Positions 6,387-59,486 are shown, counted from the stretch's first letter. The stretch is DNA of 64,000 nucleotides from an uncultured Bordetella sp. (GCA_964433345.1 CAYSQJ010000004.1:109381-173380); one strand, 5' to 3'. A program made the numbers and translations. The notes: generated by a model not told the origin, from the letters alone.

Positions 6387-6425
6387 GACGATATCGGTAA
6401 CCAGTTGTTATTCCAAGAGACCATC

Positions 6426-7937: not shown

Positions 7938-7941
7938 AGAA

Positions 7942-8020
7942 CAGTGAGGAGTCAGGGGTGAGGCGTAAGGAGTAAAACCCTGACACCTCACACCTCACAC
8001 CTCACACCTCACTGAAAAAA
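7942..8020. repeat. Structured intergenic element with a (CACCTCA)x4 tandem heptamer
   Basis: CAGTGAGG (7942-7949) pairs with CCTCACTG (about 8007-8014), and GTCAGGG pairs with CCCTGAC. Four tandem CACCTCA units lie at about 7984-8011, followed by an A6 run. Confidence 0.6.
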
Positions 8021-8023
8021 CCC

Positions 8024-8680: not shown

Positions 8681-9016
8681 TCAGCGGCCCGAAGGCACGT
8701 CGTCGGGCAGGGGCGCGCGGGATTTGAGGCGCCGGCGCAATGCGGCCCTGGCGAGCAGGCTCGCGCTGACCGGCGCGGTGACGAACAGGAACAGCGTGAT
8801 CAGCAGTTCGTGCAGCGAGACGCCGTGGCTGATTGAATAGGCGATCGACGCGAGCAGCATGCCGCCCACGCCCAGCGTCGTCGCCTTGGTCGGTGCATGC
8901 AGGCGCATGAAGAAGTCGGGCAGGCGCAGCAGGCCGATGGCGCCGACCAGCGTGAAGAAGCTGCCGATCAGCAGCATCAGCGCGACCAGCCATTCGAGGA
9001 GGATTGCGGCGTCCAT
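8681..9016 (-). CDS. phaG: Mrp/Pha antiporter subunit G
   Basis: Internal ATG of ORF 8681-9079. MDAAILLEWLVALMLLIGSFFTLVGAIGLLRLPDFFMRLHAPTKATTLG is the MnhG/PhaG signature. Confidence 0.85.
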   Translation of the reverse strand: MDAAILLEWLVALMLLIGSFFTLVGAIGLLRLPDFFMRLHAPTKATTLGVGGMLLASIAYSISHGVSLHELLITLFLFVTAPVSASLLARAALRRRLKSRAPLPDDVPSGR

Positions 9017-9023
9017 GGCGGCC

Positions 9024-9293
9024 TCAGTCCATGACGTCGCCGCGCTCGAGGTAGCGGGCGAGTGCGACGGTGGCGACAAAACCCATCAGTGCGATCAGCA
9101 GCGCGGCCTCGAAGTAGACCGAGCTTGCCATGCGGATGCCGAGGACTATCAGCAGCGCGATGGCGTTGATGTACAGCGTGTCGAGCGCGAGTATGCGGTC
9201 GGCTGCATCGGGGCCGCGCACCAGCCTGACCAGGCACAGCAGCATGGCGAGGCCGATGGCGCAGAAGGCGATGTTGATGGCCAGGTTCAGCAT
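9024..9293 (-). CDS. phaF: Mrp/Pha antiporter subunit F
   Basis: 89-aa C-terminal part of ORF 9024-9572 starting MLNLAINIAF. It contains GPDAADRILALD, typical of MrpF/PhaF. The start overlaps the phaE stop. Confidence 0.85.
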   Translation of the reverse strand: MLNLAINIAFCAIGLAMLLCLVRLVRGPDAADRILALDTLYINAIALLIVLGIRMASSVYFEAALLIALMGFVATVALARYLERGDVMD

Positions 9294-9778
9294 CCGAATA
9301 TCTCCAGCAGGGGCTTCTCGTAACGTTCCTTGATTTCGGCGATCAGCGCGTCGGGTGACTCGCAGTCCAGCGCGTGCACCAGCAGTTCGCGGTTCTCGGT
9401 ATCGATCACCGCGGACACGGTTCCCGGCGTCATCGTGATGATGCTGGCAAACAGGGTGGTGGACTGGGGATTGCTCAATGCCAGGGGTACGCGCAGAAAA
9501 ACCGGCGACAGCTGGCCGGTGGGACCGAGTACCAGGCGTGACACGGCGACGTTGGCGACCACGATGTCCCAAGTGACGCGCAACAGCAGGCGCAGCGCGG
9601 CGACTGGTGAGCGCACCTTCGGCAGATGATCGAGGAATGGCGCACTGATGCGCGGAATGGCAATGCCGAGAAATGCGGCCAGCAGCAGGTGTCCGGCGGA
9701 GAGATCACCGGTCAGCGCCAGCCATCCGGCGGCGAGCGCGGCGGAGAGCAGCGGGAAGGGCAGCCAGCTCCGGATCAT
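9287..9778 (-). CDS. phaE: Mrp/Pha antiporter subunit E
   Basis: 163-aa ORF. MnhE-like features (WDIVVANVAVSRLVL, ITMTPGTVS). Confidence 0.85.
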   Translation of the reverse strand: MIRSWLPFPLLSAALAAGWLALTGDLSAGHLLLAAFLGIAIPRISAPFLDHLPKVRSPVAALRLLLRVTWDIVVANVAVSRLVLGPTGQLSPVFLRVPLALSNPQSTTLFASIITMTPGTVSAVIDTENRELLVHALDCESPDALIAEIKERYEKPLLEIFGC

Positions 9779-11319
9779 CGCGGCAGCTCCCGGCCCAGGG
9801 GCCTTGGCGCGCGATCAGCACTGTTGCCGACCACGGCCTGCACGTATTGCGCGGGCGCCAGCAACTGCGCGGCGGTTGCCTCGGCATGCCGGTGCAGCGG
9901 TCCGGCGAAAGCCACCAGCAGCAGGCTCAAGGCCATCAGCGCGCCCAGCGGCAGCCATTCTGCACTGCGCGCCGGCACCGCATCCGGAGCGGCTTCCGCG
10001 CCGACTTTCCACAGCAGTACGCTGCCGGCGCGCGAGCAGGCCACCAGCGCGGCGAGACTGGAGACCAGTACCGTTCCCCAGATCCAGGGTGCGACAGGAC
10101 TGCCGGCAGTGCCCTGGAGGATCATCACCTTGCCGAGGAATCCCGCCGAGGGCGGCGCGCCGGCGACAACGGCTGCGCCGAGCAGGAAGACAATGCCCAG
10201 CAGCACCGGCTGGCGCGGCGCGCCGGCAGCGACCAGGGTATCCGCCGTGCTGCCGCGCTGGCGCGCGACAAGGTCGGTCAGCAGGAACAGCGCGGCGACG
10301 ATGACCGTGCTGTGCACCAGGTAGTACAGGGCGCCGGCAAGTGCCGCGTTGCCGCCTGCAGCCACCGCCGTCAGCAGCGTGCCGACCGAAGCGATGGTCA
10401 GATGCGCCACCAGTTCGCCGAGCCGTTTCGCGCCCAGGGCTCCGGTCACGCCGAGGGCCAGTGTCAGCAGCGCCAGCGGCAGCAGCCAGGGCGAGGTGAG
10501 GCTGGCCGCGGCACCGCTGTCGCCGCCAAACATCAGCGTGGTCACGCGCAGGATCGCGTAGACACCGACCTTGGTCATGATCGCGAACAGCGCGGCGACC
10601 GGTGCCGAGGCGCTGGAATAGGTCGCCGGCAGCCAGAAATAAAGCGGAAACAGTGCGGCCTTGACCGCGAAAACACCGAGCAGCATCAGGCCGGCCGCGC
10701 GCACCAGGGCGATGTCGGCCTCCGGCGTCTGCGCGATGCGCTCGGCGAGATGCGCCATGTTGAGTGTTCCGGTGACGCCGTAGAGCAGGCTGACTGCGAT
10801 CAGGAAAACGCCGGATCCGGTCAGGTTTATCGCCACGTAATGCACCGCCGCGCGCAGCCTTTGCTGGCCGAGGCCATGCAGCAGCAGGCAGTAGGAGGCG
10901 ATGAGCAGGACTTCGAAAAATACGAACAGGTTGAACAGGTCGCCGGTCAGGAATGCGCCGTTGATGCCCATCAGCTGGAACTGGAACAGGGCATGGAAAT
11001 GGCGGCCGCGCAGATCCCAGCCGTTTGCGGCGTAGGCCAGTGCCGCCAGCGCAATGATAGAAGTCAGCAGGACCAGCAGCGCCGACAGCCGGTCGGCAAC
11101 CAGCACGATGCCGAAGGGCGCCATCCAGTCGCCCAAGGCATAGACCCGGTATCCGCCGGACAGCGATTCTGCCGCGAGCAGGACGGCGGCAGCTGCGCCG
11201 AGGGCGGTGGCGGCGAGTCCAAGCACACGTGCCAGCAGCGGACGGTTGCCGCCGCAGATCAGCAGCAGCGCGCCGGCCAGCGCGGGTATCGCCAGGGGCA
11301 ACACGGCGAGGTGGTTCAT
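9775..11319 (-). CDS. phaD: Mrp/Pha antiporter subunit D (NuoN/M-like)
   Basis: Start MNHLAVLPLAIPALAG inside ORF 9775-11697, with an ATGA overlap to the phaC stop at 11316-11319. Proton-antiporter core (FFEVLLIASY, LPATYSSA). Confidence 0.88.
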   Translation of the reverse strand: MNHLAVLPLAIPALAGALLLICGGNRPLLARVLGLAATALGAAAAVLLAAESLSGGYRVYALGDWMAPFGIVLVADRLSALLVLLTSIIALAALAYAANGWDLRGRHFHALFQFQLMGINGAFLTGDLFNLFVFFEVLLIASYCLLLHGLGQQRLRAAVHYVAINLTGSGVFLIAVSLLYGVTGTLNMAHLAERIAQTPEADIALVRAAGLMLLGVFAVKAALFPLYFWLPATYSSASAPVAALFAIMTKVGVYAILRVTTLMFGGDSGAAASLTSPWLLPLALLTLALGVTGALGAKRLGELVAHLTIASVGTLLTAVAAGGNAALAGALYYLVHSTVIVAALFLLTDLVARQRGSTADTLVAAGAPRQPVLLGIVFLLGAAVVAGAPPSAGFLGKVMILQGTAGSPVAPWIWGTVLVSSLAALVACSRAGSVLLWKVGAEAAPDAVPARSAEWLPLGALMALSLLLVAFAGPLHRHAEATAAQLLAPAQYVQAVVGNSADRAPRPLGRELPR

Positions 11320-11665
11320 CGCGGATCCTCCGGCCGGTCTGCGACTTCGGTGCCGTCGACATGGTCGGACCCCGATTCGCCATGGGCGCGCACGGCGAGC
11401 CCGAGGAAAAACGCGGTCATGCCGAAGCCGATGACGATGGCGGTGAGCACCAGCGCCTGCGGCAGCGGATCGGTATAGGCCGCGGCGTTGGAAGAGATGA
11501 CCGGCGGCGCACCCGGGGTGACGCGTCCCATCGAGAAAATGAAAAGGTTGACGGCGTAGGACAGCAGCGACAGGCCCAGCACCACCGAGAAGGTGCGCCC
11601 GCGCAGCAGCAGGAACACGCCGCAGGCGGTGACTACGCCGAGCGCCGAGGCGAGCAGGAATTCCA

Positions 11666-11666
<1 letters not shown>
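11316..11666 (-). CDS. phaC: Mrp/Pha antiporter subunit C (NuoK-like)
   Basis: 116-aa ORF MEFLLASALGVVTACGVFLLLRGRTF. DPLPQALVLTAIVIGF is typical of MrpC. Confidence 0.88.
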
Positions 11667-14443
<2,777 letters not shown>

Positions 14444-14784
14444 TGCACTGTATTCAAGCGGAACGCACGGTACCGGAATGTCCGGCCGCGGCGCAGTGTG
14501 CGACAGCAGGGCGGTTGCCGGTTTCTGCTGATCCTGCGGCGGGCCCTGAAATGATTAAAGCGAATGGCTGATGATAGCCAAAAAATCCTGGTGGGTCAGC
14601 ACTTGCGGACGGGGCGCGTGCCGCGGGTGTGGAGGGGTATTTCATTCGCGAGACTGCATCCGCGGTATCAATTGCATATAGAATTGCCGCAATTACAAAA
14701 GTTAATGCATGCAATCCAACATGCGATCCCGGATTCCGGCCAAACACCCGCCTTGCGTTACTGTCGCAACCGGTCTGAACAGCC
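14444..14784. promoter_or_regulatory. Divergent intergenic control region between the two Mrp-type operons
   Basis: 341-bp non-coding gap. It holds a locally AT-rich stretch near 14660-14730 with AATTGC/GCAATT inverted motifs and an 8-bp palindrome TGCATGCA. Only spurious overlapping ORFs fall here. Confidence 0.5.
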
Positions 14785-15261
14785 ATGCTTAAATCAGCCA
14801 GTCTTGCTTTTTTTCTGTTCGTCTTCTGGCTGTTGATGTCCGGCATCTATGAGCCTTTTCTCATAGGGGCGGGTCTGGGATCCTCGCTGCTGGTGGTGTG
14901 GATCGCGCGGCGGATGGAAGTTGTTGATGCCGAGGGGCATCCGGCTCACCTGGGGCCTGCGGCATTGACCTACTGGCCGTGGCTGATGAAAGAGATCGTG
15001 GTGTCCGCGCTGGCCGTCACCCGCATCATCGTCGATCCTAAGCTGCCGATATCGCCGACACTGGTGCGTTTTCGTCCGCGCCAGACCACCACGGTCGGCC
15101 TGGTGACCCACGCCAATTCGATCACCCTCACCCCGGGCACGATTTCGCTGGAAGTGGCGCCGGGAGAGTTCCTGGTGCACGCGCTGACCCGCGAAGGCGC
15201 GCAGGCGGTGACGGACAGCGAGATGGACCGCCGTGTCGAGCGCTTTGAGGCGGGCCGCTGA
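14785..15261 (+). CDS. MrpE/MnhE-like subunit (second cluster)
   Basis: 158-aa ORF. WLLMSG, EIVVSALAVTRIIVDP and ANSITLTPGTISLEV match the MnhE family pattern. Its stop overlaps the next start. Confidence 0.75.
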   Translation: MLKSASLAFFLFVFWLLMSGIYEPFLIGAGLGSSLLVVWIARRMEVVDAEGHPAHLGPAALTYWPWLMKEIVVSALAVTRIIVDPKLPISPTLVRFRPRQTTTVGLVTHANSITLTPGTISLEVAPGEFLVHALTREGAQAVTDSEMDRRVERFEAGR

Positions 15262-15542
15262 TGTACACAGTCGCAGTTCTTGCGTTGCTGGTAACCCTTG
15301 GTCTTGTGCTGGTGCGCGGTCTGCTCGGGCCGACTGTATTTGACCGCGCGCAGGCTGCCAACACGGTGGGCACGGCGGCGGTTCTGCTGCTGGCCGTGTT
15401 CGGATTCCTGTTCGGGCGCCCCGAATTCCTCGACCTGGCGATCATCTACGGCCTGCTCAACGTGATCGGCACCATTGCCGTACTCAAGTTCTTCCGCTAC
15501 GGCGACCTTGGAGAGCCCGGCGAAGGGGAGGGCGGCAAGTGA
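15261..15542 (+). CDS. MrpF-like subunit (second cluster)
   Basis: 93-aa ORF with three hydrophobic helices. GPTVFDRAQAANTVGT aligns with the MrpF GP..DR motif. Confidence 0.75.
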   Translation: MYTVAVLALLVTLGLVLVRGLLGPTVFDRAQAANTVGTAAVLLLAVFGFLFGRPEFLDLAIIYGLLNVIGTIAVLKFFRYGDLGEPGEGEGGK

Positions 15543-15865
15543 CGCCGCTCGTCGATGCCCTGAGCTGGGTCTGCTTCGCGGCCGGCGGATTTTTCTGCAT
15601 TGTCGGTGCGGCCGGCATGCTGCGCATGCCCGATGTCTACACCCGCATGCACGCGGCCAGCGTGATCGAGACTCTGGGGGCCGGCCTCATGCTGGCCGGC
15701 ATGATGCTCCAGGCCGGGCTGACGCTGGTCACCGTGAAGCTTGCCGTGATTGCACTGCTGGTGATGTTCGCGAGCCCGACTGCGAGCCACGCGCTGGCTC
15801 GGGCGGCGATGGTGCGCGGTGTCGAGCCGCTGCTTGACCGGGGAGAAGGCGCATCGAAGCCCTGA
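15539..15865 (+). CDS. MrpG/MnhG-like subunit (second cluster)
   Basis: 108-aa ORF. FFCIVGAAGMLRMPDVYTRMHAASVIETLG matches the MnhG signature. Confidence 0.8.
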   Translation: MTPLVDALSWVCFAAGGFFCIVGAAGMLRMPDVYTRMHAASVIETLGAGLMLAGMMLQAGLTLVTVKLAVIALLVMFASPTASHALARAAMVRGVEPLLDRGEGASKP

Positions 15866-15885
15866 TCATCAATACCCTGCTGACG

Positions 15886-16383
15886 ATGATGATCGTTGTC
15901 GTGCTGGCCATGGTCCTGCAGCGCAACCTGTTCGGCGTGGTGGTGCTGTCGGGCATTTACAGTTTCCTGATGGCCACGGCGCTGGTTGCACTTGATGCGG
16001 TGGATGTGGCGATGACCGAGGCTGCAGTCGGTGCTGGCATTTCGACGGTGCTGCTGCTGGGGGCGATATACCTCACGCGTGCGAACGAGGCGAAACCCCT
16101 GCGCCGGCCGCTGCTGCCGCTGGTGGCGGCGCTGGGCGTAAGCGGGGCGCTGATCTACGGTACGCTGGGACTGCCCGCATTTTCCGATCCGGCGGCGCCG
16201 ATCCATACCCATGTTGCTCCGCGCTACATCGAGAAGGCGGTCACCGAGACCGGCGTGCCCAACGTGGTGACTGCGGTACTTGCGAGTTACCGGGGCTATG
16301 ACACCTTCGGTGAGACCATCGTGGTGTTTACCGCCGGCATCGGCGTGATCGCGCTGCTCAGGCGCCGCCGCCGCAAGGATTAG
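15886..16383 (+). CDS. MbhD/DUF4040-type membrane subunit (equivalent to the MrpA C-terminal domain)
   Basis: 165-aa ORF. ALDAVDVAMTEAAVGAGISTVLLL and VVTAVLASYRGYDTFGETIVVFTAG are typical of DUF4040/MrpA C-terminal proteins. The true start may lie a few codons upstream. Confidence 0.72.
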   Translation: MMIVVVLAMVLQRNLFGVVVLSGIYSFLMATALVALDAVDVAMTEAAVGAGISTVLLLGAIYLTRANEAKPLRRPLLPLVAALGVSGALIYGTLGLPAFSDPAAPIHTHVAPRYIEKAVTETGVPNVVTAVLASYRGYDTFGETIVVFTAGIGVIALLRRRRRKD

Positions 16384-16385
16384 CC

Positions 16386-16817
16386 ATGCATTCTCAACTC
16401 GTCCTGCGCGTCATCGCGAAGCTGCTGATCCCGTTCATGCTGTTGTTCGCGCTGTACGTGCAGTTCCACGGCGATTTCGGCCCGGGCGGCGGTTTCCAGG
16501 CCGGCGTGATCACGGCAGCGGCGGTGATTCTCTACGGACTGATCTACGGCCTGCCCGCCGCGAGACGGCTGGTTCCCGACCGTTTTGTCGAATCGATGAT
16601 CGCCGGCGGGGTGCTGCTGTACGGCGGGGTCGGCGTCGCCGGCATGCTGCTGGGCGGCAACTTCCTCGATTATTTCGTGCTGGCGGCCGATCCGGTGCAT
16701 GGCCAGCACCGCGGCATCCTGCTGGTGGAGCTGGGTGTGCTGATCACCGTTGCCGGGGTGATGCTGAAGATCTTCTACGTGTTTGCGGGGCGGGGTCGCG
16801 ACCCCGGCCGCGAATGA
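16386..16817 (+). CDS. MnhB/MrpB-like subunit (second cluster)
   Basis: 143-aa ORF. LFALYVQFHGDFGPGGGFQAGVI is the MnhB-domain hallmark. Confidence 0.8.
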   Translation: MHSQLVLRVIAKLLIPFMLLFALYVQFHGDFGPGGGFQAGVITAAAVILYGLIYGLPAARRLVPDRFVESMIAGGVLLYGGVGVAGMLLGGNFLDYFVLAADPVHGQHRGILLVELGVLITVAGVMLKIFYVFAGRGRDPGRE

Positions 16818-17179
16818 GCTTCGCCAGCCATTACAGCTACTGGGCGACCATCGCGCTGATGGTCCTCGGGCTTTATATCCTGATTGCCCGGGGCAATCTG
16901 ATCAAGAAGCTGGTCGGACTGGCGGTGTTCCAGACCTCGGTCTACCTGCTGTACATCGCGCCGGGCAAGCTGATCGGAGGCACCGCGCCGATCATCGCCG
17001 AACAGTTCCGCATTTACTCCAATCCGCTGCCGCATGTGCTGATCCTGACCGCGATCGTGGTCGGCGTGGCGACGCTGGCGCTGGGCCTCGCGCTGGTGGT
17101 GCGCATATACGAGGCCTACGGCAGTATCGAGGAGGACGAGATCATCGAACGCGACCGGAAGGCAGGGCAGGACGCTTGA
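16814..17179 (+). CDS. MrpC/NuoK-like subunit (second cluster)
   Basis: 121-aa ORF. GNLIKKLVGLAVFQTSVYLLY and NPLPHVLILTAIVVGVATLALGLALV. Confidence 0.85.
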   Translation: MSFASHYSYWATIALMVLGLYILIARGNLIKKLVGLAVFQTSVYLLYIAPGKLIGGTAPIIAEQFRIYSNPLPHVLILTAIVVGVATLALGLALVVRIYEAYGSIEEDEIIERDRKAGQDA

Positions 17180-18654
17180 TTTCCGACCACCTGCCGATCC
17201 TGCAGGTTGTGCTGCCGTTGCTGGCGGCGCCGCTGATCGTGCTGTTCCGTCATGCCGTGCTGGCCTGGCTGCTGGCGGCTGCAGTCAGCTGGTGTTCCTT
17301 TGCGATCGCGGTGGCGCTTTTTTTCGCAGTGCCCGCCGGCGGTGCGTTCGATTATGCGCTCGGCAGCTGGGCCGCCCCCTGGGGCATTGCCTACCGCATC
17401 GACAGCGCCAGCGCCTATGTGCTGGTGCTGGTGTCGCTGATTGCCTCGGTGGTGGTCACCTACGCACGGTCGAGCATCGCCGCAGAGGTGGATCGCGACA
17501 GCCACTACCTGTTTTACGCGATGTTCGTGCTCTGCCTGGGCGGTCTGCTCGGCATTGCCGCCACCAACGACGCCTTCAACCTGTTTGTTTTCCTCGAGAT
17601 TTCCTCGCTGTCCAGCTACGTGCTCATTTCCATAGGCCGCAACCGGCGCGCGCTGCATGCTGCTTTCCAGTATCTGATCATGGGTACCATCGGTGCGACT
17701 TTCTACGTGATCGGCGTCGGGCTGCTCTACCTGATGACCGGCACGCTGAACATGGCGGACATGGCGGAGCGGCTGGCGCAGGTCGGTGAGACGCGCCCGG
17801 TGCTGTCGGCGCTGGCCTTCATCACCGTCGGACTGTCGCTGAAGATCGCGCTTTTCCCGCTGCATTTCTGGCTGCCCAATGCCTATGCCTCGGCGCCTTC
17901 GGTGGTGTCGGCATTCCTTGCCGGCACGGCGACCAAGGTGTCGGTGTACGTGCTGATGCGCTTCCTGTTCTCGGTGTTCGGTGTCAGGCTTTCCCTCGAT
18001 GCGCTGCACCTGTTTGACCTGCTCGTCGGCCTGTCGATCGCCGCGACCGTGGCGGCGTCCCTGATAGCGCTGTTCCAGGATGACCTCAAGCGCATGCTGG
18101 CCTACTCCAGTGTCGCCCAGGTCGGCTATATCACGCTGGGCATCGCGCTGAACAATGCAGACGGATTGACCGCCGCGGTGATTCACCTGTTCAACCACGG
18201 CATCACCAAGGTGGCGCTGTTCATGCTTGTCGGGGGCATCGTGCTGCGCATGGGCACGACGCGTTTTTCCGACATGGCGGGGCTCGCGCGGCGCATGCCG
18301 TTCACGGCCTTTGGCTTCGTCGTCGCCGGCCTCAGCCTGATCGGGGTTCCCGCATCCGCGGGATTCGTCACCAAGTGGTACCTGGTGATGGCGGCGCTGG
18401 AACGTGCTCACTGGTGGCTGGCGGCTCTGGTCGTGGCGACTTCGCTGATCTCGGCGCTGTACGTCTGGCGTTTTGTCGAGATGGCCTACCTGCGCGAGCC
18501 CGTCGGCGAGGTCCGGCGTTCCGAGGCACCGCTGTCGCTGCTGGTGCCGGCCTGGATCATGGTCCTGGCCTGCACCTATTTCGGACTCGAGACCTCGTAT
18601 TCGCTGACCGGGGCCCAGGAGGCCGCGGCTGCGCTGGCAAGGGGATTCCGTTGA
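17176..18654 (+). CDS. MrpD/NuoM-N-like antiporter subunit 1 (second cluster)
   Basis: TTG start at 17176 overlaps the preceding stop (within ORF 16783-18654). Proton-antiporter core FVFLEISSLSSYVLI, FPLHFWLPNAYASAPS, LAYSSVAQVGY. Confidence 0.85.
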   Translation: MISDHLPILQVVLPLLAAPLIVLFRHAVLAWLLAAAVSWCSFAIAVALFFAVPAGGAFDYALGSWAAPWGIAYRIDSASAYVLVLVSLIASVVVTYARSSIAAEVDRDSHYLFYAMFVLCLGGLLGIAATNDAFNLFVFLEISSLSSYVLISIGRNRRALHAAFQYLIMGTIGATFYVIGVGLLYLMTGTLNMADMAERLAQVGETRPVLSALAFITVGLSLKIALFPLHFWLPNAYASAPSVVSAFLAGTATKVSVYVLMRFLFSVFGVRLSLDALHLFDLLVGLSIAATVAASLIALFQDDLKRMLAYSSVAQVGYITLGIALNNADGLTAAVIHLFNHGITKVALFMLVGGIVLRMGTTRFSDMAGLARRMPFTAFGFVVAGLSLIGVPASAGFVTKWYLVMAALERAHWWLAALVVATSLISALYVWRFVEMAYLREPVGEVRRSEAPLSLLVPAWIMVLACTYFGLETSYSLTGAQEAAAALARGFR

Positions 18655-20108
18655 ATCCGCAGTCGGCGATACTCGCGGCGCTTGTTCTGCCCGTGGCCGG
18701 TGCAGCGGGCATCCTGCTGGCGCACCGCATGCCGAACCTGCGCGAGGCGGTGACCCTGTCCTGTGCTGCTGCGCTGTTCGGCTGCGTGCTGCTGCTGTTG
18801 CCGGCAGTACTGGACGGGGAGAGGCCTGCAGTGGCGCTGTTCCAGTTGCTGCCCGGCATTCAGTTCGCGTTCCGGGTGGAGCCGCTGGGCATGCTGTTTG
18901 CGCTGGTGGCCTCCGGCCTGTGGATCGTCAATTCACTGTATTCAATCGGTTACATGCGGGCCAACCGGGAGCAGGGGCAGACACGGTTCTACGCCTGTTT
19001 CGCGCTGGCGCTGGCCTGCACGATGGGCATCGCCTTCGCTTCCAACCTGCTGACGCTGTTCCTGTTCTACGAAATGCTGACCCTGGTCACCTATCCGCTG
19101 GTGACCCACCACCGGGACGAGGAAGCGCGTCGCGGCGGACGCGTTTACATGACCTATCTGCTCGGCAGTTCGATGGCGCTGCTGCTGGTGGCGGTCATCT
19201 CGACCTGGCTGGGCACGGGCAGCGTCGAGTTCACGCCGGGCGGCTTGATCGGTGACAAATTCTCGAACGGCGAAATCGGGCTGCTGCTGGCACTGTTCGT
19301 GTTCGGCATCGGCAAGGCCGCGGTGATGCCCTTCCATCGCTGGTTGCCGGCGGCGATGGTGGCGCCGACACCGGTCTCCGCGCTGCTGCACGCGGTCGCC
19401 GTGGTCAAGGCCGGCGTTTTCACCGTGGTCAAGGTCATCGTCTACGTGTTCGGCGTTGAGCGCATTGCCGGCCTGAGCAGCGTCGACTGGCTGCCGTTCA
19501 TCGCGGGCTTCACCATCATCGCCGCATCCGTGGTCGCGCTGCGCTCGGACAACCTGAAGCGGCGCCTGGCCTATTCCACCATCAGCCAGCTGTCGTACGT
19601 GGTGCTGGCCGCGGCGATCCTGGCGCCGCTGTCGGTGATCGGCGCGGCGCTGCATATTGCAGCCCATGCGGTGGGCAAGATCACGCTTTTTTTCGCGGCA
19701 GGCGCGATCTATACCGCGGCCCACAAGACGCAGGTCAGCGAGCTCGACGGCATCGGCCGGCGCATGCCGCTGACGATGACAGCATTTGCGATCGGCGCGA
19801 TCTCGATGATTGGCCTGCCGCCGGCCGCGGGTTTCATCAGCAAGTGGTACATGCTGCAGGGCGCCGTATCCGGCGCGCACTGGAACGCGGTGGCGGTCAT
19901 CGCAATGAGCACCCTGCTCAATGCGGCCTATTTTCTGCCGATCGTTTATCGCGCATTCTTTGCCGGACCCGCCGCCGGCGAGGCGGTGCACGGCGAGGCG
20001 CCGCCGCTGATGGTTGCCGCGCTGTGCATCACCGCCGCTGCGACGGTGCTGCTGTTCTTTTTCCCCGACGTGCCGCTGGCGCTGGCGCGGCTGATGATGG
20101 CGGACTGA
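18651..20108 (+). CDS. MrpD/NuoM-N-like antiporter subunit 2 (second cluster)
   Basis: TTG start at 18651 overlaps the preceding stop (within ORF 18375-20108). FLFYEMLTLVTYPLV, MPFHRWLPAAMVAPTPVSALLHAVAVVKAG, LAYSTISQLSYV. Confidence 0.85.
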   Translation: MNPQSAILAALVLPVAGAAGILLAHRMPNLREAVTLSCAAALFGCVLLLLPAVLDGERPAVALFQLLPGIQFAFRVEPLGMLFALVASGLWIVNSLYSIGYMRANREQGQTRFYACFALALACTMGIAFASNLLTLFLFYEMLTLVTYPLVTHHRDEEARRGGRVYMTYLLGSSMALLLVAVISTWLGTGSVEFTPGGLIGDKFSNGEIGLLLALFVFGIGKAAVMPFHRWLPAAMVAPTPVSALLHAVAVVKAGVFTVVKVIVYVFGVERIAGLSSVDWLPFIAGFTIIAASVVALRSDNLKRRLAYSTISQLSYVVLAAAILAPLSVIGAALHIAAHAVGKITLFFAAGAIYTAAHKTQVSELDGIGRRMPLTMTAFAIGAISMIGLPPAAGFISKWYMLQGAVSGAHWNAVAVIAMSTLLNAAYFLPIVYRAFFAGPAAGEAVHGEAPPLMVAALCITAAATVLLFFFPDVPLALARLMMAD

Positions 20109-20109
20109 C

Positions 20110-20367
20110 ATGGCGCACTGGCTGACCCGACAATCGACGATCCGCCGGCTCTGGCAAGTCTCCCTTGCCCTGCTGGCATTGCTGGTGCTGGCCGGTGCCC
20201 TGGTCGAGCAGCACCCCCATTTCGGAATAGACGCGGTGTTTGCCTTTCCCGCCTGGTACGGATTCGGCGCCTGCATTGTGCTGATCGTCATCGCCAAGGC
20301 GATCGGCCTGCTGCTGAAGCGGCCCGACAGCTACTATCCGCCCGAACGGGAGCCCGGCGATGACTAG
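20110..20367 (+). CDS. Small two-helix membrane protein of unknown function embedded in the Mrp-like cluster
   Basis: 85-aa ORF that starts 2 nt after the upstream stop and overlaps the downstream start by 8 nt. Two hydrophobic helices (VSLALLALLVLAGALV and GFGACIVLIVIAKAIGLLL). I recognise no family. Confidence 0.5.
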   Translation: MAHWLTRQSTIRRLWQVSLALLALLVLAGALVEQHPHFGIDAVFAFPAWYGFGACIVLIVIAKAIGLLLKRPDSYYPPEREPGDD

Positions 20368-22036
20368 CCTGCTGCTGCATCCGGGCCTGTTGCTGGTCGC
20401 CGGCGGGCTGCTGGTCGCGGTCCTGCGCGGCCGCACGCGTGCCGCGGTGATCCTGCTGCTGCCGCTGCTGGCACTGTGGCTGGTCTGGCAGGCGCCGGAC
20501 CCGGCAGCAGCGGCGACGGTGCAGTTCCTTGAGCACACGCTGCGGCCACTGGCGCCGGACAGCCTGTCGCGGCTGTTCGCGACGATATTCGCGATCATGG
20601 CTTTCGGCGGCGGCTTGTTTGCGCTGAACCAGCCCAGCCGCCTTGAAGTGCCTGCCGCCTTTGTCTACGCAGGTTCGGCCATCGGTGCCGCCATGGCGGG
20701 CGACCTGCTCACGCTGTTCGTGTTCTGGGAACTGATGGCGATCGGCTCCACGCTGGTGCTGTGGAGCGGCGGCGCCAGCCGGGCAAGTTTCCGTTACCTG
20801 ATGGTGCACCTGTTCGGCGGTGTGCTGCTGATGGCGGGCATTGCCGGCCATGTGGCGGATACCGGTTCCGTCGAATTCCTGCGCATGACGCTGGACACGC
20901 CCTGGCACTGGCTGATGCTGGCCGGTTTCCTGGTCAATGCGGGCGCGCCGCCGCTGTCAGCCTGGCTGCCCGACGCCTATCCGGAAGCTTCGTGGAGCGG
21001 CATGGTCTTCCTGTCGGCCTTCACCACCAAGACCGCGGTCTACGTGCTGCTGCGCGGGTTTCCCGGCAACGAGATCCTGATCTGGATCGGCGTGTTCATG
21101 ATTTTCTACGGCATCATCTACGCGCTGCTCGAGAACGACATGCGGCGCATTCTCGCCTACAGCATCGTCAACCAGGTGGGATTCATGGTTGCCGGCGCCG
21201 GCATCGGCACCGAAATGGCGATCAGCGGCGCGGCGGCGCATGCCTTCACCCACATCATCTACAAGGCGCTGCTGCTGATGTCCGCCGGCTCGGTGCTCTA
21301 CATGACCGGCCGGCGCAAGTGCACTGACCTCGGCGGACTGTTCCAGAGCATGCCGGTCACCTGCATCTGCGGCATCATCGGCGCGCTGGCGATCTCGGCG
21401 TTTCCGCTGACTTCCGGTTTTGTTTCCAAGTCGATGATTTCGCAGGCTGCCGCCGACCAGCATCTGCTGTGGATCTGGCTGGCGCTGGCCGCGGCTTCGG
21501 CAGGCGTGTTCCTCCACGCCGGCATCAAGTTTCCGTGGTTCGTGTTTTTCCAGAAGGACTCCGGCCTGCGGCCGCCGGATCCACCGGCAAACATGCGCGC
21601 CGCGATGATCCTGTTCTCGGTGCTGTGCATCGCCATCGGCATCTGGCCGGAGCCGCTCTACCGCCTGCTGCCGCATGCCACCGGGTACGAGCCGTACACG
21701 GCCGCGCACGTGCTGACCCAGCTGCAGCTTCTGCTGTTCTCCGGGCTGGCGTTTTTCGTGATGCTGGATTACCTGAAGCGCACGCTGACCATCACCCTCG
21801 ACGCGGACTGGCTGTACCGGGTGCTGGCGCCAGCCTTGTGGCGCGCGCTTTGCTCGGCGTACTGCGAGGTGCGGCGGTCCTTCGCCGCCGCATTGGGCCG
21901 CGGCACCGTCATTGCTGAACGTCTGCTGCGCTGTTTTGGCCCTGCAGGCCTGCTCGGCCGCACCTGGAGCACTGGTGCCACCGCGTTGTGGATGATGGTG
22001 CTTTTGCTGGCCTATCTGGTGACTTACCTGAGCTGA
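20360..22036 (+). CDS. NuoL/MrpA-N-terminal-like or MrpD-like antiporter subunit 3 (second cluster)
   Basis: 558-aa ORF. LFVFWELMAIGSTLVLW, SAWLPDAYPEASWSG, LAYSIVNQVGFMV. It is longer than the two preceding paralogues. Confidence 0.85.
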   Translation: MTSLLLHPGLLLVAGGLLVAVLRGRTRAAVILLLPLLALWLVWQAPDPAAAATVQFLEHTLRPLAPDSLSRLFATIFAIMAFGGGLFALNQPSRLEVPAAFVYAGSAIGAAMAGDLLTLFVFWELMAIGSTLVLWSGGASRASFRYLMVHLFGGVLLMAGIAGHVADTGSVEFLRMTLDTPWHWLMLAGFLVNAGAPPLSAWLPDAYPEASWSGMVFLSAFTTKTAVYVLLRGFPGNEILIWIGVFMIFYGIIYALLENDMRRILAYSIVNQVGFMVAGAGIGTEMAISGAAAHAFTHIIYKALLLMSAGSVLYMTGRRKCTDLGGLFQSMPVTCICGIIGALAISAFPLTSGFVSKSMISQAAADQHLLWIWLALAAASAGVFLHAGIKFPWFVFFQKDSGLRPPDPPANMRAAMILFSVLCIAIGIWPEPLYRLLPHATGYEPYTAAHVLTQLQLLLFSGLAFFVMLDYLKRTLTITLDADWLYRVLAPALWRALCSAYCEVRRSFAAALGRGTVIAERLLRCFGPAGLLGRTWSTGATALWMMVLLLAYLVTYLS

Positions 22037-22296
22037 GCAGGGCTGTCTTCGTCAGCATTCCGTAAGCTTCCGGCCGGCCTCATTCTGCTGATGCGGCAGC
22101 CGGCGGAAATGCTTGATTTCGCCCATGTTGGGCGCTAGCATGATTTTCAGGTAGCACAGCGTTGCGCATGGCGCAATCCACACGGGTCGCCAGGCTCCCG
22201 CAGATGACGGAATCGCGCAGGCCAGGCCATAACAACAAAGCGTCGCGCTGTACCGTTCCCCGTTTTTTGATGGTCCACCGTTCTGGAGGAGAAAAA

Positions 22297-23463
22297 ATGT
22301 TTAAGAAACAGGATGTTAAGCCTGCCGATCGCCGTGCCACCCGGCGCAAATTCCTGACCGGCGCTGCTGCTGCGACGACGGGTGCCGCGATTGCCGGCTT
22401 TCCGATGATTTCCAAGGCCCAGGCCGGGCCGATCACCATGCGCTGGCAGAGCACCTGGCCGGCGAAGGATATCTTCCACGAATACGCGCTCGATTTCGCG
22501 AAGAAGGTCAACGACATGACCGGCGGCGAACTCAAGATCGAGGTGCTGCCCGCAGGCGCAGTGGTGCCGGCCTTTCAACTGCTTGATGCCGTGTCCAAGG
22601 GCACGCTCGACGGCGGCCACGGTGTGCTGGTCTACCACTACGGCAAGCAGAATGCGCTGGCGCTGTGGGGCTCGGGTCCGGCCTACGGCATGGATGCCAA
22701 CATGCTGCTCGCCTGGCACAAGTACGGCGGCGGCAAGCAGCTGCTGGAGAAACTCTACGGCTCGATCGGCGCCAATGTGGTGTCCTTTCCCTACGGCCCG
22801 ATGCCGACGCAGCCGCTGGGCTGGTTCAAGAAGCCGGTGACCCGGGTGCAGGACATGAAGGGCCTGAAGTTCCGCACGGTGGGCATTTCGATTGACGTGT
22901 TCACGGCGATGGGCGTGTCGGTCAACGCGCTGCCCGGCGGCGAGATCGTGCCGGCCATGGACCGAGGACTGCTGGATGCCGCCGAGTTCAACAACGCGTC
23001 CTCCGACCGCATCCTCGGTTTCCCGGACGTGTCGAAGGTCTGCATGCTGCAGAGCTTCCACCAGAATGCCGAACAGTTCGAGATCATGTTCAACAAGGGC
23101 AAGTTCAATGCCCTGCCGTCGAAGATGAAGGCGATCATCGAGAACGCCGTCGAGGCCGCTTCGGCCGACATGTCGTGGAAGGCTGTCGACCGCTACTCGA
23201 AGGACTACATCGAGATGCAGCAGAAGCAGGGCGTGCGTTTCTACAAGACGCCGGATCCCATCCTGCAGGCGCAGTTGACCGGCTATGACGCTGCGGTGGC
23301 CAAGCGCAAGGACAATGCGCTGTTCCGCGAGATCGAGGAATCGCAGCGCAGGTTCGCCGAGCGCGCGGTGCGCTGGGACCTCGACACCAACGTCAACCGC
23401 CGCATGGCCTACAACCATTATTTCGGCAAGAAGCCGGCGGCAGCCAAAAAGAAGAAGTCCTGA
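22297..23463 (+). CDS. TRAP transporter substrate-binding protein (DctP-type, Tat signal)
   Basis: ATG at 22297 is preceded by GGAGGAG. Twin-arginine signal TRRKFLTGAAAATTGAAIAG. The mature part resembles the TRAP mannitol/chloroaromatic-type periplasmic component. Confidence 0.85.
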   Translation: MFKKQDVKPADRRATRRKFLTGAAAATTGAAIAGFPMISKAQAGPITMRWQSTWPAKDIFHEYALDFAKKVNDMTGGELKIEVLPAGAVVPAFQLLDAVSKGTLDGGHGVLVYHYGKQNALALWGSGPAYGMDANMLLAWHKYGGGKQLLEKLYGSIGANVVSFPYGPMPTQPLGWFKKPVTRVQDMKGLKFRTVGISIDVFTAMGVSVNALPGGEIVPAMDRGLLDAAEFNNASSDRILGFPDVSKVCMLQSFHQNAEQFEIMFNKGKFNALPSKMKAIIENAVEAASADMSWKAVDRYSKDYIEMQQKQGVRFYKTPDPILQAQLTGYDAAVAKRKDNALFREIEESQRRFAERAVRWDLDTNVNRRMAYNHYFGKKPAAAKKKKS

Positions 23464-23489
23464 CGCGGACTGCTACCGAAGCAAACACG

Positions 23490-23523
23490 ACACCATCCGG
23501 CCGCCCCGGATGGTGTTTTTTTT
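23490..23523 (+). terminator. Rho-independent terminator/attenuator between the TRAP binding-protein and permease genes
   Basis: Stem CACCATCCGG / CCGGATGGTG with a 5-nt loop, followed by T8. Confidence 0.75.
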
Positions 23524-23567
23524 AGCAGCGGCCGGCGGCCGGCCCGCATCCACGGAATCGATGGAAC

Positions 23568-24167
23568 ATGCAGAAACTGCTTCTTTTCGTCGACAAGCTG
23601 AGCACCTTCGTCGGGCAGGCCTTTTCCTGGCTGATCGTAGGCCTGACGCTGCTGATTTCCTGGGAAGTGTTCTCGCGCTACGCGCTCGACAACCCGCATG
23701 CCTGGGCCTTCGATGCGATGATCATGCTCTACGGCACGCTGTTCATGATGGCGGGCGCCTACACCCTGTCGAAGAACGGCCATGTGCGCGGCGACGTGTT
23801 GTACGGTTTTTTCCGGCCGCGGACCCAGGCCACGCTGGACCTGCTGCTCTACATCGTGTTTTTCATTCCCGGCGTCATCGCGCTGACCTATGCCGGGTAT
23901 TTCTACGCCGCCGAGTCCTGGGCGATCAATGAGCATTCGAACATCACCGCCGACGGCCCGCCGGTCTATCCCTTCAAGACCGTGATCCCGCTGGCCGGCA
24001 TAGTCCTGCTGCTGCAGGGCATTGTCGAAATCGCCCGCTGCATCATCTGCCTGCGTGACGGGGCATGGCCCTCCCGCGAGGAGGATGTCGAGGAGGTCGA
24101 CGTCGACAAGCTGAAGGAAATGGTGCACGCCGACGATGCCGGTGCGGCCGGCAAGGGGGCGGCGTGA
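23568..24167 (+). CDS. TRAP transporter small permease (DctQ-type)
   Basis: 199-aa ORF with four hydrophobic helices. It sits between the TRAP P and M genes and its stop overlaps the next start. Confidence 0.8.
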   Translation: MQKLLLFVDKLSTFVGQAFSWLIVGLTLLISWEVFSRYALDNPHAWAFDAMIMLYGTLFMMAGAYTLSKNGHVRGDVLYGFFRPRTQATLDLLLYIVFFIPGVIALTYAGYFYAAESWAINEHSNITADGPPVYPFKTVIPLAGIVLLLQGIVEIARCIICLRDGAWPSREEDVEEVDVDKLKEMVHADDAGAAGKGAA

Positions 24168-26179
24168 TGAAGGTGCGCAAGGAACTGTGGTTCGGCTTCA
24201 CGATCATGGCGCTGATCGTGATCCCCGTGCTGATCCTGACGCCCTGGACCGACATGACCAACGGCGCCCTCGGCCTGCTGATGCTGGCGCTGGTGGTGGT
24301 GGCGATCATGCTCGGCTTCCCGACGGCGTTCACGCTGATGGGCATGGGCGTGATGTTTTCCTGGTTTTTCTACCGCAGCGTCGATCCGGACATGGCCACC
24401 CGGCAGGTGCTCGACCTGATGGTGCAGCGGACATACGGCGTGATGTCCAACGACGTGCTGATCGCGGTGCCGCTGTTCGTGTTCATGGGTTATCTGGTCG
24501 AGCGTGCGGCGCTGATCGAACGTCTGTTCAAGAGCCTGCACCTCGCGCTGGCACGCCTGCCGGGATCGCTGGCGGTTGCCACCATCATCACCTGCGCGAT
24601 TTTCGCGACAGCCACCGGCATCGTCGGCGCGGTGGTCACGCTGATGGGCCTGCTGGCCCTGCCTGCCATGTTGCGTGCGGGTTATCACACGCAGATTGCC
24701 GCAGGTTCGGTGACCGCCGGCGGCTGTCTCGGCATCCTGATCCCGCCATCTGTGCTGCTGATCGTCTATGGCGCCACTGCCGGCGTGTCGGTGGTGCAGC
24801 TGTATGCAGGCGCATTTTTCCCCGGCCTGATGCTTTCCGCGCTGTACGTCGGCTACGTGATCGTGCTGGCGATGATCAAGCCGAAACTGATGCCGCCGCT
24901 GCCGAAGAGCGAGCGCGAGGTCGAACTGCCGGCATTCGCGAAAACCCTGGCGGCGCAGGGGCGCCATGCAACCATCGGCCTCCTCCGCGCGCTGGGCGGC
25001 GGCAGCAGTGTTCCGGTGCGCACGGTGTCCGGGCAATTATTTGTTTCCCTGCTGCCGGCGCTGGCGATTGCCGCCGTGCTGGCTTTCAGCTACCGGGCTG
25101 CGACCGCGCCGGTGGAGGAATTCGACACCTCGGGCCTGGTCGAGGCCGGCGCCTCCTTTTATTCCGAGCCGAAGCAGGAAACCGGATTGTTGGAACCTTC
25201 CGGCAGCACCGGACTGCAGGAGCCGCCAGCCGAAGGCGCGGCCGGGAAACCCGAGGAGAGCACCGGTTTGCTGGAGCCACCCGGCGCAGACAAGGCGGCT
25301 GCCGAAACCGTGGCTCCCGCGGAGACCCCCGCCGCAGTGTCCGAGCCCCCGGCGCCTGCTGCGGAGCAGCGTCCGGTGCCGCTCTGGTTCTGGATCATGG
25401 CCGGCATCGGCCTGGTGTCCCTGGTGCTGATTTATGCCTTGTGGACCTGGCAGCGCTTCGAGATTTTCAAGATGCTGCTGGGTTCCTTCTTCCCGCTGTC
25501 GATCCTGATCCTTGCCGTGCTGGGATCCATCGTGTTCGGATTCGCCACGCCCACCGAGGCGGCCGCAGTGGGCGCCTTCGGTGGTTTCGTGCTGGCGGCG
25601 GTCTACCGTTTCATTGCCCATCAGCGCGGCAATCCCGGCTTTGCCGCGGTCGGTACCACGGTCAGGGAACTGGGGGGCATCATCAAGGAATCCTCCTTCC
25701 TCACCGCAAAGACCAGCGCGATGGTGTGCTGGCTGTTTGTCGGATCGGCAATTTTCTCGGCGGCCTTCGCGCTGCTCGGCGGCCAGCAGATCATCGAAAA
25801 CTGGGTGCTGTCACTGGGGCTGACGCCGATCCAGTTCATGATCCTCGCCCAGTGCATCATATTCATCCTCGGCTGGCCGCTGGAATGGACCGAGATCATC
25901 GTCATTTTCATGCCTATCTTCATTCCGCTGCTGCCCAAGTTCGGCATCGATCCGCTGTTCTTCGGCCTGCTGGTCGCACTCAACCTGCAGACGGCCTTTT
26001 TGTCGCCGCCGGTCGCGATGTCGGCCTTCTACCTGAAGGGTGTTGCACCCCCGCATGTCACGCTGAACCAGATCTTCCTCGGGATGATGCCGTTCATGGG
26101 CATACAGATCATTGCCCTGGTCATGCTCTACACCTTCCCGGGAATCGGCCTGTGGCTGCCGCAACTGCTCTACCGCTGA
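24167..26179 (+). CDS. TRAP transporter large permease (DctM-type) with an internal hydrophilic insertion
   Basis: Start MKVRKELWFGF at 24167 inside ORF 24065-26179. DctM-like helices run throughout. A proline/glutamate/alanine-rich insert with TGLLEP/TGLQEP/TGLLEP repeats is encoded at about 25090-25380. Confidence 0.82.
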   Translation: MKVRKELWFGFTIMALIVIPVLILTPWTDMTNGALGLLMLALVVVAIMLGFPTAFTLMGMGVMFSWFFYRSVDPDMATRQVLDLMVQRTYGVMSNDVLIAVPLFVFMGYLVERAALIERLFKSLHLALARLPGSLAVATIITCAIFATATGIVGAVVTLMGLLALPAMLRAGYHTQIAAGSVTAGGCLGILIPPSVLLIVYGATAGVSVVQLYAGAFFPGLMLSALYVGYVIVLAMIKPKLMPPLPKSEREVELPAFAKTLAAQGRHATIGLLRALGGGSSVPVRTVSGQLFVSLLPALAIAAVLAFSYRAATAPVEEFDTSGLVEAGASFYSEPKQETGLLEPSGSTGLQEPPAEGAAGKPEESTGLLEPPGADKAAAETVAPAETPAAVSEPPAPAAEQRPVPLWFWIMAGIGLVSLVLIYALWTWQRFEIFKMLLGSFFPLSILILAVLGSIVFGFATPTEAAAVGAFGGFVLAAVYRFIAHQRGNPGFAAVGTTVRELGGIIKESSFLTAKTSAMVCWLFVGSAIFSAAFALLGGQQIIENWVLSLGLTPIQFMILAQCIIFILGWPLEWTEIIVIFMPIFIPLLPKFGIDPLFFGLLVALNLQTAFLSPPVAMSAFYLKGVAPPHVTLNQIFLGMMPFMGIQIIALVMLYTFPGIGLWLPQLLYR

Positions 26180-54311: not shown

Positions 54312-54312
54312 A

Positions 54313-54330
54313 CCGTCATCTTCCCGTAAC
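54313..54330 (+). promoter_or_regulatory. Pho-box-like site upstream of phoX
   Basis: CCGTCAT-CTTC-CCGTAAC: two 7-bp direct repeats with 11-bp periodicity, resembling CTGTCAT-N4-CTGTCAT. It lies 44-61 nt upstream of the phoX ATG. Confidence 0.45.
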
Positions 54331-59484: not shown

Positions 59485-59486
59485 CG

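Follow-up and report, generated by a model that had tools for sequence, protein, structure and literature searches.

Ten consecutive genes at positions 14785-22036 of a 64,000-nucleotide (nt) stretch of DNA from an uncultured Bordetella sp. (GCA_964433345.1, CAYSQJ010000004.1:109381-173380; hereafter, the window) form one intact operon encoding an Mrp-family membrane exchanger of cations and protons. In order, these genes are E-F-G-Ac-B-C-D1-D2-X-D3, where Ac is a free MrpA C-terminal domain, D1, D2, and D3 are large antiporter-like subunits, and X is an 85-amino-acid (aa) membrane protein. Judging from gene content and its conservation, we consider it probable that the ten products make up one stand-alone Mrp (CPA3) complex of the Mbh/Mbs-like group 3 lineage, i.e., a monovalent cation/H+ antiporter driven by the proton-motive force and equipped with an extended proton arm. 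An earlier reading of the DNA without database searches (the sequence-only reading) had described the cluster as stand-alone and of the Mrp type, with its genes in Mbh/Mbs order, three antiporter-like subunits, and no redox module, and profile searches together with synteny bore this description out.

All ten open reading frames (ORFs) are intact and lie on the (+) strand, and Pfam and NCBIfam profiles assign a family to every product except X. The first three genes encode an MrpE-like subunit (158 aa, 14785..15261; Pfam MNHE, 3.7e-29), whose homologues share 46-68% identity and are likewise encoded by the first gene of the cluster in relatives, an MrpF-like subunit carrying the motif DRAQAAN (93 aa, 15261..15542; Pfam MrpF_PhaF, 4.7e-15), and an MrpG-like subunit (108 aa, 15539..15865; Pfam PhaG_MnhG_YufB, 6.7e-26; TIGR01300, 79.7 bits, above cutoff). 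These are followed by Ac, an MbhD+MbhE fusion (165 aa, 15886..16383; Pfam MbhD, 1.7e-15, and MbhE, 1.8e-12; NF009159, 187 bits against a cutoff of 141), B, of the MrpB/MnhB type (143 aa, 16386..16817; Pfam MnhB, 4.9e-29; NF009162, 191 bits, cutoff 120), and the MrpC/NuoK-like C (121 aa, 16814..17179; Pfam Oxidored_q2, 2e-21; NF005624, 127.7 bits, cutoff 95). The remaining genes encode D1, of the MrpD/MbsH/MbhH type (492 aa, 17176..18654; Proton_antipo_M, 1.6e-66), D2, of the MrpA-N/NuoL type (485 aa, 18651..20108; Proton_antipo_M, 1.6e-51, plus Proton_antipo_N), X, with two transmembrane helices (20110..20367), and the distal antiporter-like subunit D3 (558 aa, 20360..22036; Proton_antipo_M, 2.5e-44; NF009310, 679 bits, cutoff 564). 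By Pfam and NCBIfam, the domain set of the Mrp/CPA3 family (Transporter Classification 2.A.63) is thereby complete, comprising MrpA-N-like, MrpD-like, MrpA-C, MrpB, C, E, F, and G domains.

The genes are tightly packed. E and F have 1 nt in common, 4-nt overlaps (GTGA, ATGA, or TTGA) occur at F/G, B/C, C/D1, and D1/D2, and X and D3 overlap by 8 nt; Ac and B are separated by 2 nt, D2 and X by 1 nt, and the sole larger gap (20 nt) falls between G and Ac. Both D1 and D2 begin with TTG (at 17176 and 18651, respectively), and both starts fit the N-termini of the matching NCBIfam profiles. Longer ORFs that can be called mechanically for these two genes (16783.. and 18375..) were rejected because they read through the upstream gene in another frame.

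Relatives of D3, sought in one genome per species, were found in at least 564 genomes, and the best 80 loci were taken for a tblastn analysis of synteny. The ten-gene order recurred in essentially every related locus with sufficient flank, at 42-85% identity to the window; because such homologues stand in the same order in ~70 other genomes, the genes can be regarded as real. Among the carriers are Betaproteobacteria (Hydrogenophaga, Rhodoferax, Ca. Accumulibacter, Thiobacillus, Gallionella, and Leptothrix), Alphaproteobacteria (Bradyrhizobium, Hyphomicrobiales, and Rhodospirillales), and Gammaproteobacteria, while distant members found via X, in Magnetospira sp. QH-2, Iodidimonas gelatinilytica, and distant metagenomic lineages, keep the order as well. 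The sequence-only reading had called the cluster atypical, which holds relative to the textbook mrpABCDEFG order but not in terms of frequency: the architecture is common, as the number of species-level genomes with a D3 relative indicates, is fitted by NCBIfam models, and falls within a published group (group 3). No flanking partner gene is conserved among the 80 loci, the commonest neighbors (a two-component system, DctP, a P-type ATPase, a 2-hydroxyacid dehydrogenase, and a CaCA antiporter) each occurring in at most 11 of them. Since the flanks vary and the ten-gene order is constant, the cluster is a self-contained, strongly conserved unit. No near-identical DNA was found in plasmids.

The searches for a linked redox partner were negative. 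No Nuo homologues were detected in the 64-kb window by tblastn (E<=1e-3) with NuoA-G, I, J, and K of the Sinorhizobium meliloti plasmid pSymA as queries; NuoH, which was not among these queries, is lacking by Pfam annotation of the window, and no hydrogenase or complex I genes appear in the Pfam annotation of the remainder. An MbhJ/K/L/N module of the MBH/MBS/Mbx type and an MbhM anchor are lacking from the window as well as from the flanks of related loci, and no partner of the DabA/CupA type (DAB; NDH-1 with CupA) occurs among the neighbors of the cluster within the window or appears in the gene tables for related loci. Only 4 of the 80 loci have Nuo-like genes within 10 kb, and these form separate operons of ordinary nuo or related type.

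The three large subunits differ from one another in kinship. The best solved relatives of D1 are MbsH (219 bits) and MrpD (212 bits), and its glutamate in transmembrane helix (TM) 5 and lysines in TM7, TM8 (the TM8 lysine motif lies at K254), and TM12 are present and conserved. For D2, the best solved relatives are NuoL, NdhF, and MrpA; in a neighbor-joining (NJ) tree it groups with the N-terminal part of PhaA from the adjoining Pha operon (described below), its TM8 bears the MrpA-type His and Lys, and its 485 residues include neither a C-terminal extension nor a lateral helix. D3 is a separate clade that is NuoL-like in topology only. Its best sequence match to solved structures is only MbsH' (112 bits), and its AlphaFold2 model (predicted local distance difference test score [pLDDT], 77; predicted template modeling score [pTM], 0.78) has a 14-helix core, TM15 (448-473), an amphipathic lateral helix (482-526), and TM16 (538-557). 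With the full-length model, the best Foldseek matches are MrpA, NdhF, and NuoL (template modeling score [TM-score] up to 0.78), compared with ~0.65 for MrpD/NuoM, which lack the extension. Of the labels given in the sequence-only reading, MrpD-like is apt for D1 and NuoL-like fits the third subunit in topology, but the NuoL/MrpA-N-like sequence belongs to D2 rather than to the third subunit.

All three large subunits keep the TM5 Glu, TM8 Lys, TM11 His/Lys (HxxxHxxxK), and TM12 Lys, which are invariant across loci. In D3, Asn193 replaces the TM7 lysine of the Lys/Glu pair, and the histidine of the PxH.WLP motif that follows this site is Ser. The TM7 lysine is present in D1, D2, PhaA, PhaD, NuoM, NuoN, and all solved homologues compared, while Asn193 is invariant in D3 from 89 of 89 loci, complex I copies included, and occurs in 73 of 74 database proteins. 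In two relatives, Bradyrhizobium sp. RDT10 (complete genome, locus L052, 6816-9746) and I. gelatinilytica (L091, 4211-7174), D1 and D2 are broken into at least two pieces, which are either frameshift pseudogenes or sequencing errors; none of the genes in the window is a pseudogene.

A kinship that the sequence-only reading had not mentioned links the last three genes to complex I. A protein search of plasmids revealed D3 relatives (~53-55% identity) in 99 rhizobial replicons, and in S. meliloti pSymA (L088) and a plasmid of Rhizobium sp. Pop5 (L089), the D3 relative lies within a nuo operon. This operon has the order nuoJ, nuoK, a 487-aa "MrpD family" protein, an 84-aa hypothetical protein, a 586- or 591-aa "Na+/H+ antiporter subunit D," and nuoM, N, A, B, C, D, E, F, and G. 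Between the window and pSymA, the identity amounts to 52% for D2, 53% for D3, and 34% for X (E-value 7e-7), the X homologue being the 84-aa hypothetical protein (L088, 11622-11876; L089, 6622-6876). In "green complex I," two MrpD-like subunits replace NuoL, as described in PMC9040806 with reference to Degli Esposti & Martinez-Romero 2016, and Complex_I_3 of Ca. Manganitrophus has the same MrpD-like pair, with a further 26-aa insertion in the lateral helix of "MrpD2" that makes room for a fifth pump (PMC9040806); in its text, that paper makes no mention of a small protein between the two MrpD-like genes. By sequence comparison, D2-X-D3 is homologous to this NuoL-replacing cassette of green complex I. 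In NJ trees, the green-complex-I copies of D2 and D3 are sisters of all sampled Mrp-type copies, and the three genes have therefore traveled together, in one direction or the other.

The length of the D3 tail, counted from the conserved D.DW motif just past TM15 to the C-terminus, provides the strongest indirect evidence for a single linear arrangement. In 78 Mrp-type loci, the tail varies from 73 to 79 aa, being 75 aa in 45 loci and 76 aa in 25, even though its sequence is poorly conserved. In comparison, the D3 homologue in the pSymA complex I, a complex with one additional antiporter-like subunit, has a tail of 100 aa, and this 25-aa difference matches the ~26 aa per added antiporter-like subunit reported for complex I variants (PMC9040806). 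The comparison suggests that the D3 helix spans exactly two neighbors in the cluster, D2 and D1, whereas in green complex I it would span three, namely the D2-like subunit, NuoM, and NuoN, which would place the three large subunits of the cluster in one linear complex.

X itself has no match in Pfam or NCBIfam. A profile search of 1.84 billion representative proteins returned 2008 cluster representatives at E<=1e-3, of which 688 reach E<=1e-10; they are without exception short (~70-240 aa) and unannotated. The AlphaFold2 model is a helical hairpin (pLDDT, 72), with the conserved motifs HWLxRPxTIRRLW and LKRPDxYY at the ends and further conservation in the short loop. In every context examined, the X gene lies between a D2-like and a D3-like gene and usually overlaps them, and we take X to be a dedicated small subunit of the D2/D3 pair, as its conserved genomic position suggests. 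We also considered whether X could have split off from MrpA, as its TM15/16 or its lateral helix, and rejected this, since a profile comparison with the PhaAB protein of the window revealed no similarity (probability, 0.1%) and the 18-residue loop between the two helices is too short for a lateral helix. Some family members (P0212, P0214, P0218, P0251, P0281, P0297, and P0310) bear extensions of low complexity, which are Lys/Ile/Leu-rich, N-terminal, and 60-150 aa long in low-GC lineages and Ala/Pro/Asp-rich in high-GC members; these are either real or start-codon miscalls.

Tentatively, and with slightly less than even confidence, we propose that D2-X-D3 is a portable "pump-extension cassette" used both on stand-alone Mrp and on the complex I of rhizobia and Ca. 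Manganitrophus. X would be an obligatory subunit of this cassette and D3 a terminal cap without the canonical TM7 lysine, whose lateral helix would act as a length ruler, the tail measuring 75 aa where there are three pumps, 100 aa where there are four, and a further ~26 aa where there are five.

Among the smaller subunits, several positions match residues of the proposed Na+ path of Mrp, and two others, in F and C, depart from solved homologues. In Ac, Asp139 and Glu143 align with MrpA Asp776 and Glu780 and are invariant in related loci; in B, Phe37 aligns with MrpB Phe41 and Glu115 with MrpB Asp121, both again invariant. MrpA Glu780, MrpB Phe41, and MrpB Asp121 are residues of the Na+ sites of Bacillus pseudofirmus Mrp (PMC9568556). 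The MrpG-like subunit conserves Asp32 and Arg36, and the Asp28-Arg29 pair of F (equivalent to MrpF Asp32/Arg33) is present and invariant. The Ac motif TEAAVGAG carries the Mbh/Mbs-type glutamate rather than the Bacillus-type Glu687, and Ac is predicted from its sequence to be part of a composite proton path and of a cation site. In some lineages, Ac and B are fused into one gene for a protein of 322-323 aa (L081/L082, 5679-6647; L091, 2881-3852) that matches NCBIfam NF009161, and the subunit boundaries are therefore fluid.

The first departure concerns F, in which the MrpF motif DRxxAxD reads DRAQAAN, placing Asn34 at the position of B. pseudofirmus MrpF Asp38. This Asn34 is invariant in 67 of 67 loci and in six more distant clusters, while alignment shows Asp at this position in all five solved homologues and in PhaF of the window itself. 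Protonation of MrpF Asp38 is among the factors central to Na+ binding and transfer (PMC9568556), and its equivalent in MBS, MbsB Asp36, was placed in the first negatively charged cavity (PMC8165549). The second departure is in C, whose nearest relative in a PDB search is MbsG (78 bits, versus 42 for bacterial MrpC) and which has an invariant Gln at the position of MbsG Glu37.

Group 3 is a catch-all for Mrp systems that lack a full-length mrpA, have their genes in irregular order, and carry at least one (extra) mrpD-like gene (PMC5703873, PMC8415708). By its gene content, the cluster is a member of this group, with an irregular order and the functions of MrpA split over several genes; these same features set it apart from groups 1 and 2. 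The closest stand-alone precedent is mrpEFGBB'CD of Pyrococcus furiosus, a group 3 system whose deletion showed a role in pH and Na+ homeostasis and in which "MrpB" is an MbhD+MbhE fusion and "MrpB'" is MnhB (PMC8415708). The first seven genes of the cluster stand in the identical order, and neither system has a full-length MrpA or a redox module; unlike the cluster, however, the P. furiosus system is archaeal and has a single antiporter-like subunit, and its published gene list contains no D2-, X-, or D3-like genes (PMC8415708). The membrane arms of MBS and MBH (PDB 6u8y, 6cfw; PMC7684303, PMC8165549) are similar as well, their order E-F-G-(D/E)-(F)-G-H-H' mirroring E-F-G-Ac-B-C-D1-D2; for C, F, D1, and D3, the best or nearly the best solved relatives come from MBS or MBH, and the TEAAVGAG motif of Ac is of the MbhD type. 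These complexes differ from the cluster in carrying a NiFe-hydrogenase-derived redox module (MbhJKLMN), in having two (MbsH and MbsH' in MBS) or one (MBH) antiporter-like subunits, and in retaining Asp in MbsB and MbhB. The number of antiporter-like paths has been given as one in MBH, two in MBS and Mrp, and three in complex I, with the lateral helix just spanning them (PMC8165549).

With the group 1/2 Mrp complexes of known structure (Anoxybacillus, Bacillus pseudofirmus, and Dietzia; PMC7419157, PMC9568556) and the Pha system of the window, the cluster shares the domain set, conserved residues around the second Na+ site, and the principle of a lateral-helix clamp. In those complexes, MrpA is one polypeptide, whereas in the cluster D2, D3, and Ac divide its core, lateral helix, and C-terminal domain among them; the known complexes have two antiporter-like subunits rather than three, keep the order ABCDEFG, and retain both MrpF Asp38 and the TM7 Lys. 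Green complex I has homologues of D2, X, and D3, and its D3-like protein likewise has Asn for the TM7 Lys, but there the cassette is part of a complete NADH dehydrogenase operon, between nuoK and nuoM, the tail of the D3-like protein exceeds that in the cluster by 25 aa, and mrpE, F, G, and B genes are lacking. The cluster has only this cassette in common with complex I, which is defined by NuoA, B, C, D, H, I, J, and K alongside.

Two further group 3 systems can be compared by their published descriptions. The mrpCD1D2EFGAB cluster of the cyanobacterium Aphanothece halophytica, which confers Na+/H+ antiport in Escherichia coli (Fukaya et al. 2009, as summarized in PMC5703873), is, going by that summary, a circular permutation of E-F-G-A-B-C-D1-D2. 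Ca. Nitrospira alkalitolerans likewise has a group 3 Mrp with several MrpD-like genes, two extra NuoM- and NuoL-like genes after mrpD being mentioned in passing (PMC7784846). A literature search returned no paper that describes or tests the ten-gene architecture, X, or the residue changes. The architecture is common and lies within group 3 Mrp, so it is not categorically new; yet it is an uncharacterized, well-defined variant.

In the proposed antiporter, the subunits would assemble into one membrane complex that exchanges Na+ and/or K+ for protons, driven by the proton-motive force and not by redox chemistry. D3, D2, and D1 would act as three antiporter-like proton channels in series, the composite proton path would be made up of Ac and C, and the cation module of B, E, F, and G. 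The predicted layout in the membrane is D3-D2-D1-(Ac/C)-(B/E/F/G), with X attached to D2/D3. As the distal cap, D3 would send its lateral helix back over D2 and D1 and be anchored by TM16, in the way that NuoL clamps NuoM and NuoN. Current Mrp models are electrogenic, and one proposes 2 H+ per Na+ (PMC9568556); relative to a two-pump Mrp, a third channel would plausibly raise the number of protons or charges per cation, making extrusion more membrane-potential-driven.

Several observations weigh against this model. The position of MrpF Asp38 is Asn in every member, that of MbsG Glu37 is Gln in C, and D3 lacks the TM7 lysine, unlike every solved antiporter-like subunit compared; because of these three substitutions, the cation path and its coupling may differ from those of characterized Mrp. 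The hosts are mostly freshwater, groundwater, and soil bacteria and not alkaliphiles or halophiles. In addition, one gammaproteobacterial metagenome-assembled chromosome (L015, CP070738.1, 9708-11674) has an X-D3 pair, the D3 tail being of Mrp-type length (75 aa), with the other eight genes not within 10 kb, and our literature search found no experiment on the ten-gene architecture.

Three other explanations were weighed. The substitutions in F and C would suit a variant of the proposed model in which the cluster is a stand-alone Mrp-type exchanger but not a Na+ extruder, handling K+, NH4+, or Ca2+ instead or operating in reverse, i.e., with cation uptake and proton expulsion. Mrp systems for K+ or Ca2+ are documented (S. 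meliloti Pha1 and Thermomicrobium roseum Mrp; PMC5703873), P. furiosus Mrp has been proposed to run reversed at low pH (PMC8415708), and with a canonical Pha system next door, simple redundancy is unlikely. However, the other Na+-site residues are kept, namely the equivalents of MrpA Glu780, MrpB Asp121 (as Glu), and MrpB Phe41 as well as the Asp28-Arg29 pair of F, and ion specificity in the Mrp family is not something that sequence can reveal; we regard this variant as unlikely, though by no means far-fetched. The portability of D2-X-D3 raises the question of whether the operon could encode two machines, a group 3 Mrp of seven subunits (E, F, G, Ac, B, C, and D1) and an independent D2-X-D3 module that works alone or docks in trans, e.g., to complex I. 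The cassette does occur within nuo operons in rhizobia, the isolated X-D3 pair of the gammaproteobacterial chromosome lies ~4.6 kb upstream of nuoD/E/F/G-like genes, and archaea have the seven-gene form by itself (PMC8415708).

Against two machines, the ten genes are strictly co-linear and translationally coupled in ~75 loci, and the D3 tail is fixed at the length expected for two neighbors (D2 and D1), 25 aa below the three-neighbor case. Moreover, the Asp-to-Asn change in MrpF co-occurs with X-D3 in every cluster checked, suggesting that the two halves co-evolve, and a division into two machines is, in our judgment, decidedly improbable. Gene order and nearest sequence relatives, those being MBS and MBH, also bring to mind the membrane arm of a redox- or otherwise energy-driven pump whose peripheral module is encoded elsewhere, as in MBH, MBS, Mbx, and complex I, the more so as D2-X-D3 also works in a true complex I. 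Yet the window has neither an anchor of the NuoH/MbhM type nor homologues of NuoB, C, D, and I, the few Nuo-like genes near related loci belong to separate operons, flanking genes are otherwise unrelated between genomes, and stand-alone group 3 Mrp complexes are already known (PMC8415708). We consider a hidden peripheral module very improbable and retain a single, proton-motive-force-driven antiporter as the probable form of the ten-gene system.

Upstream, the cluster is transcribed divergently from a separate, complete group 2 phaAB-C-D-E-F-G operon on the (−) strand (8681..14443), across a 341-bp spacer (14444..14784); here, Pfam domains and coordinates agree with the sequence-only reading. 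PhaAB is a protein of 925 aa that joins MrpA to MrpB in one chain, and the operon has the features that define groups 1 and 2, with the order mrpA(B)CDEFG and a single MrpA comprising core, lateral helix, and C-terminal domain. The back-to-back arrangement to which that reading drew attention is real in the window but is not conserved, since a Pha operon adjoins the cluster in only 2 of the 80 related loci; the pairing is thus incidental or lineage specific. Scans of the spacer for promoters, terminators, and repeats gave nothing above chance, with weak promoter-like matches only, and no Rfam families were found between 8 and 24 kb, the spacer included. At 14640-14725, the spacer is AT-rich and contains short palindromes (AATTGC...GCAATT, TGCATGCA), a candidate, without statistical support, for an operator that could be common to the Pha operon and the cluster.

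Downstream, the next gene encodes a DctP-family binding protein by Pfam, as had been read from the sequence, and begins a set of tripartite ATP-independent periplasmic (TRAP) transporter genes on the (+) strand (Pfam DctP, DctQ, and DctM; 22162..26179). Such genes adjoin the cluster in ~13 of ~95 related loci (among them L001, L003, L004, L006, L007, L011, L062, L067, L087, and L092), a recurrent but minority arrangement that may reflect common reliance on a cation gradient. TRAP transporters such as SiaPQM are Na+-coupled. Farther along the window (44460-45697, [+] strand), a gene for an Sbt_1 protein of 306 aa (348 bits; Na+-dependent bicarbonate transporter superfamily) precedes, with a 4-nt overlap, one for a P-II-like protein of 106 aa; the pair resembles cyanobacterial SbtA/SbtB and would need a Na+ gradient. 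Both the TRAP adjacency and this pair are compatible with a role of the cluster in a Na+ cycle, for which they constitute weak evidence. Three proteins with GGDEF and/or EAL domains (cyclic di-GMP; 119-1801, 3300-4718, and 39513-40910), a LutB/LutC-like pair around an aldehyde dehydrogenase (4861-8668), PhoX (54092-56305), and a resistance-nodulation-division (RND) efflux pump (58294-62567) look like ordinary proteobacterial chromosome content.

The variant is distinguished by its three pumps, by an added subunit that is conserved, by two invariant changes at residues regarded as important to the mechanism, and by a direct evolutionary link to the NuoL-replacing cassette of green complex I. 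For a large set of "hypothetical" proteins of 80-130 aa, X provides a family-level assignment, and the NuoL-replacing subunits of green complex I become linked in origin to an Mrp-type operon. How a distant event is coupled to serial proton channels is an open question in the complex I field, as is whether each added antiporter-like subunit contributes one proton per cycle; such subunits number two in known Mrp complexes, three in complex I, and four or five in rare variants. If the pump-extension cassette is what we propose, the Mrp-type clusters would be a natural three-pump Mrp with an H+/cation ratio unlike that of two-pump Mrp and a redox-free system in which stoichiometry could be tested against the number of antiporter-like subunits. 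The invariant loss of MrpF Asp38 and of the TM7 lysine in the distal subunit supplies natural mutants for current models, and for specialists in the mechanism of complex I and Mrp, the cluster is a useful natural experiment more than a surprise. With close relatives in cultured strains of Hydrogenophaga, Rhodoferax, and Magnetospira, a redox-free Mrp with three antiporter-like subunits would be the simplest system in which to measure this scaling directly.

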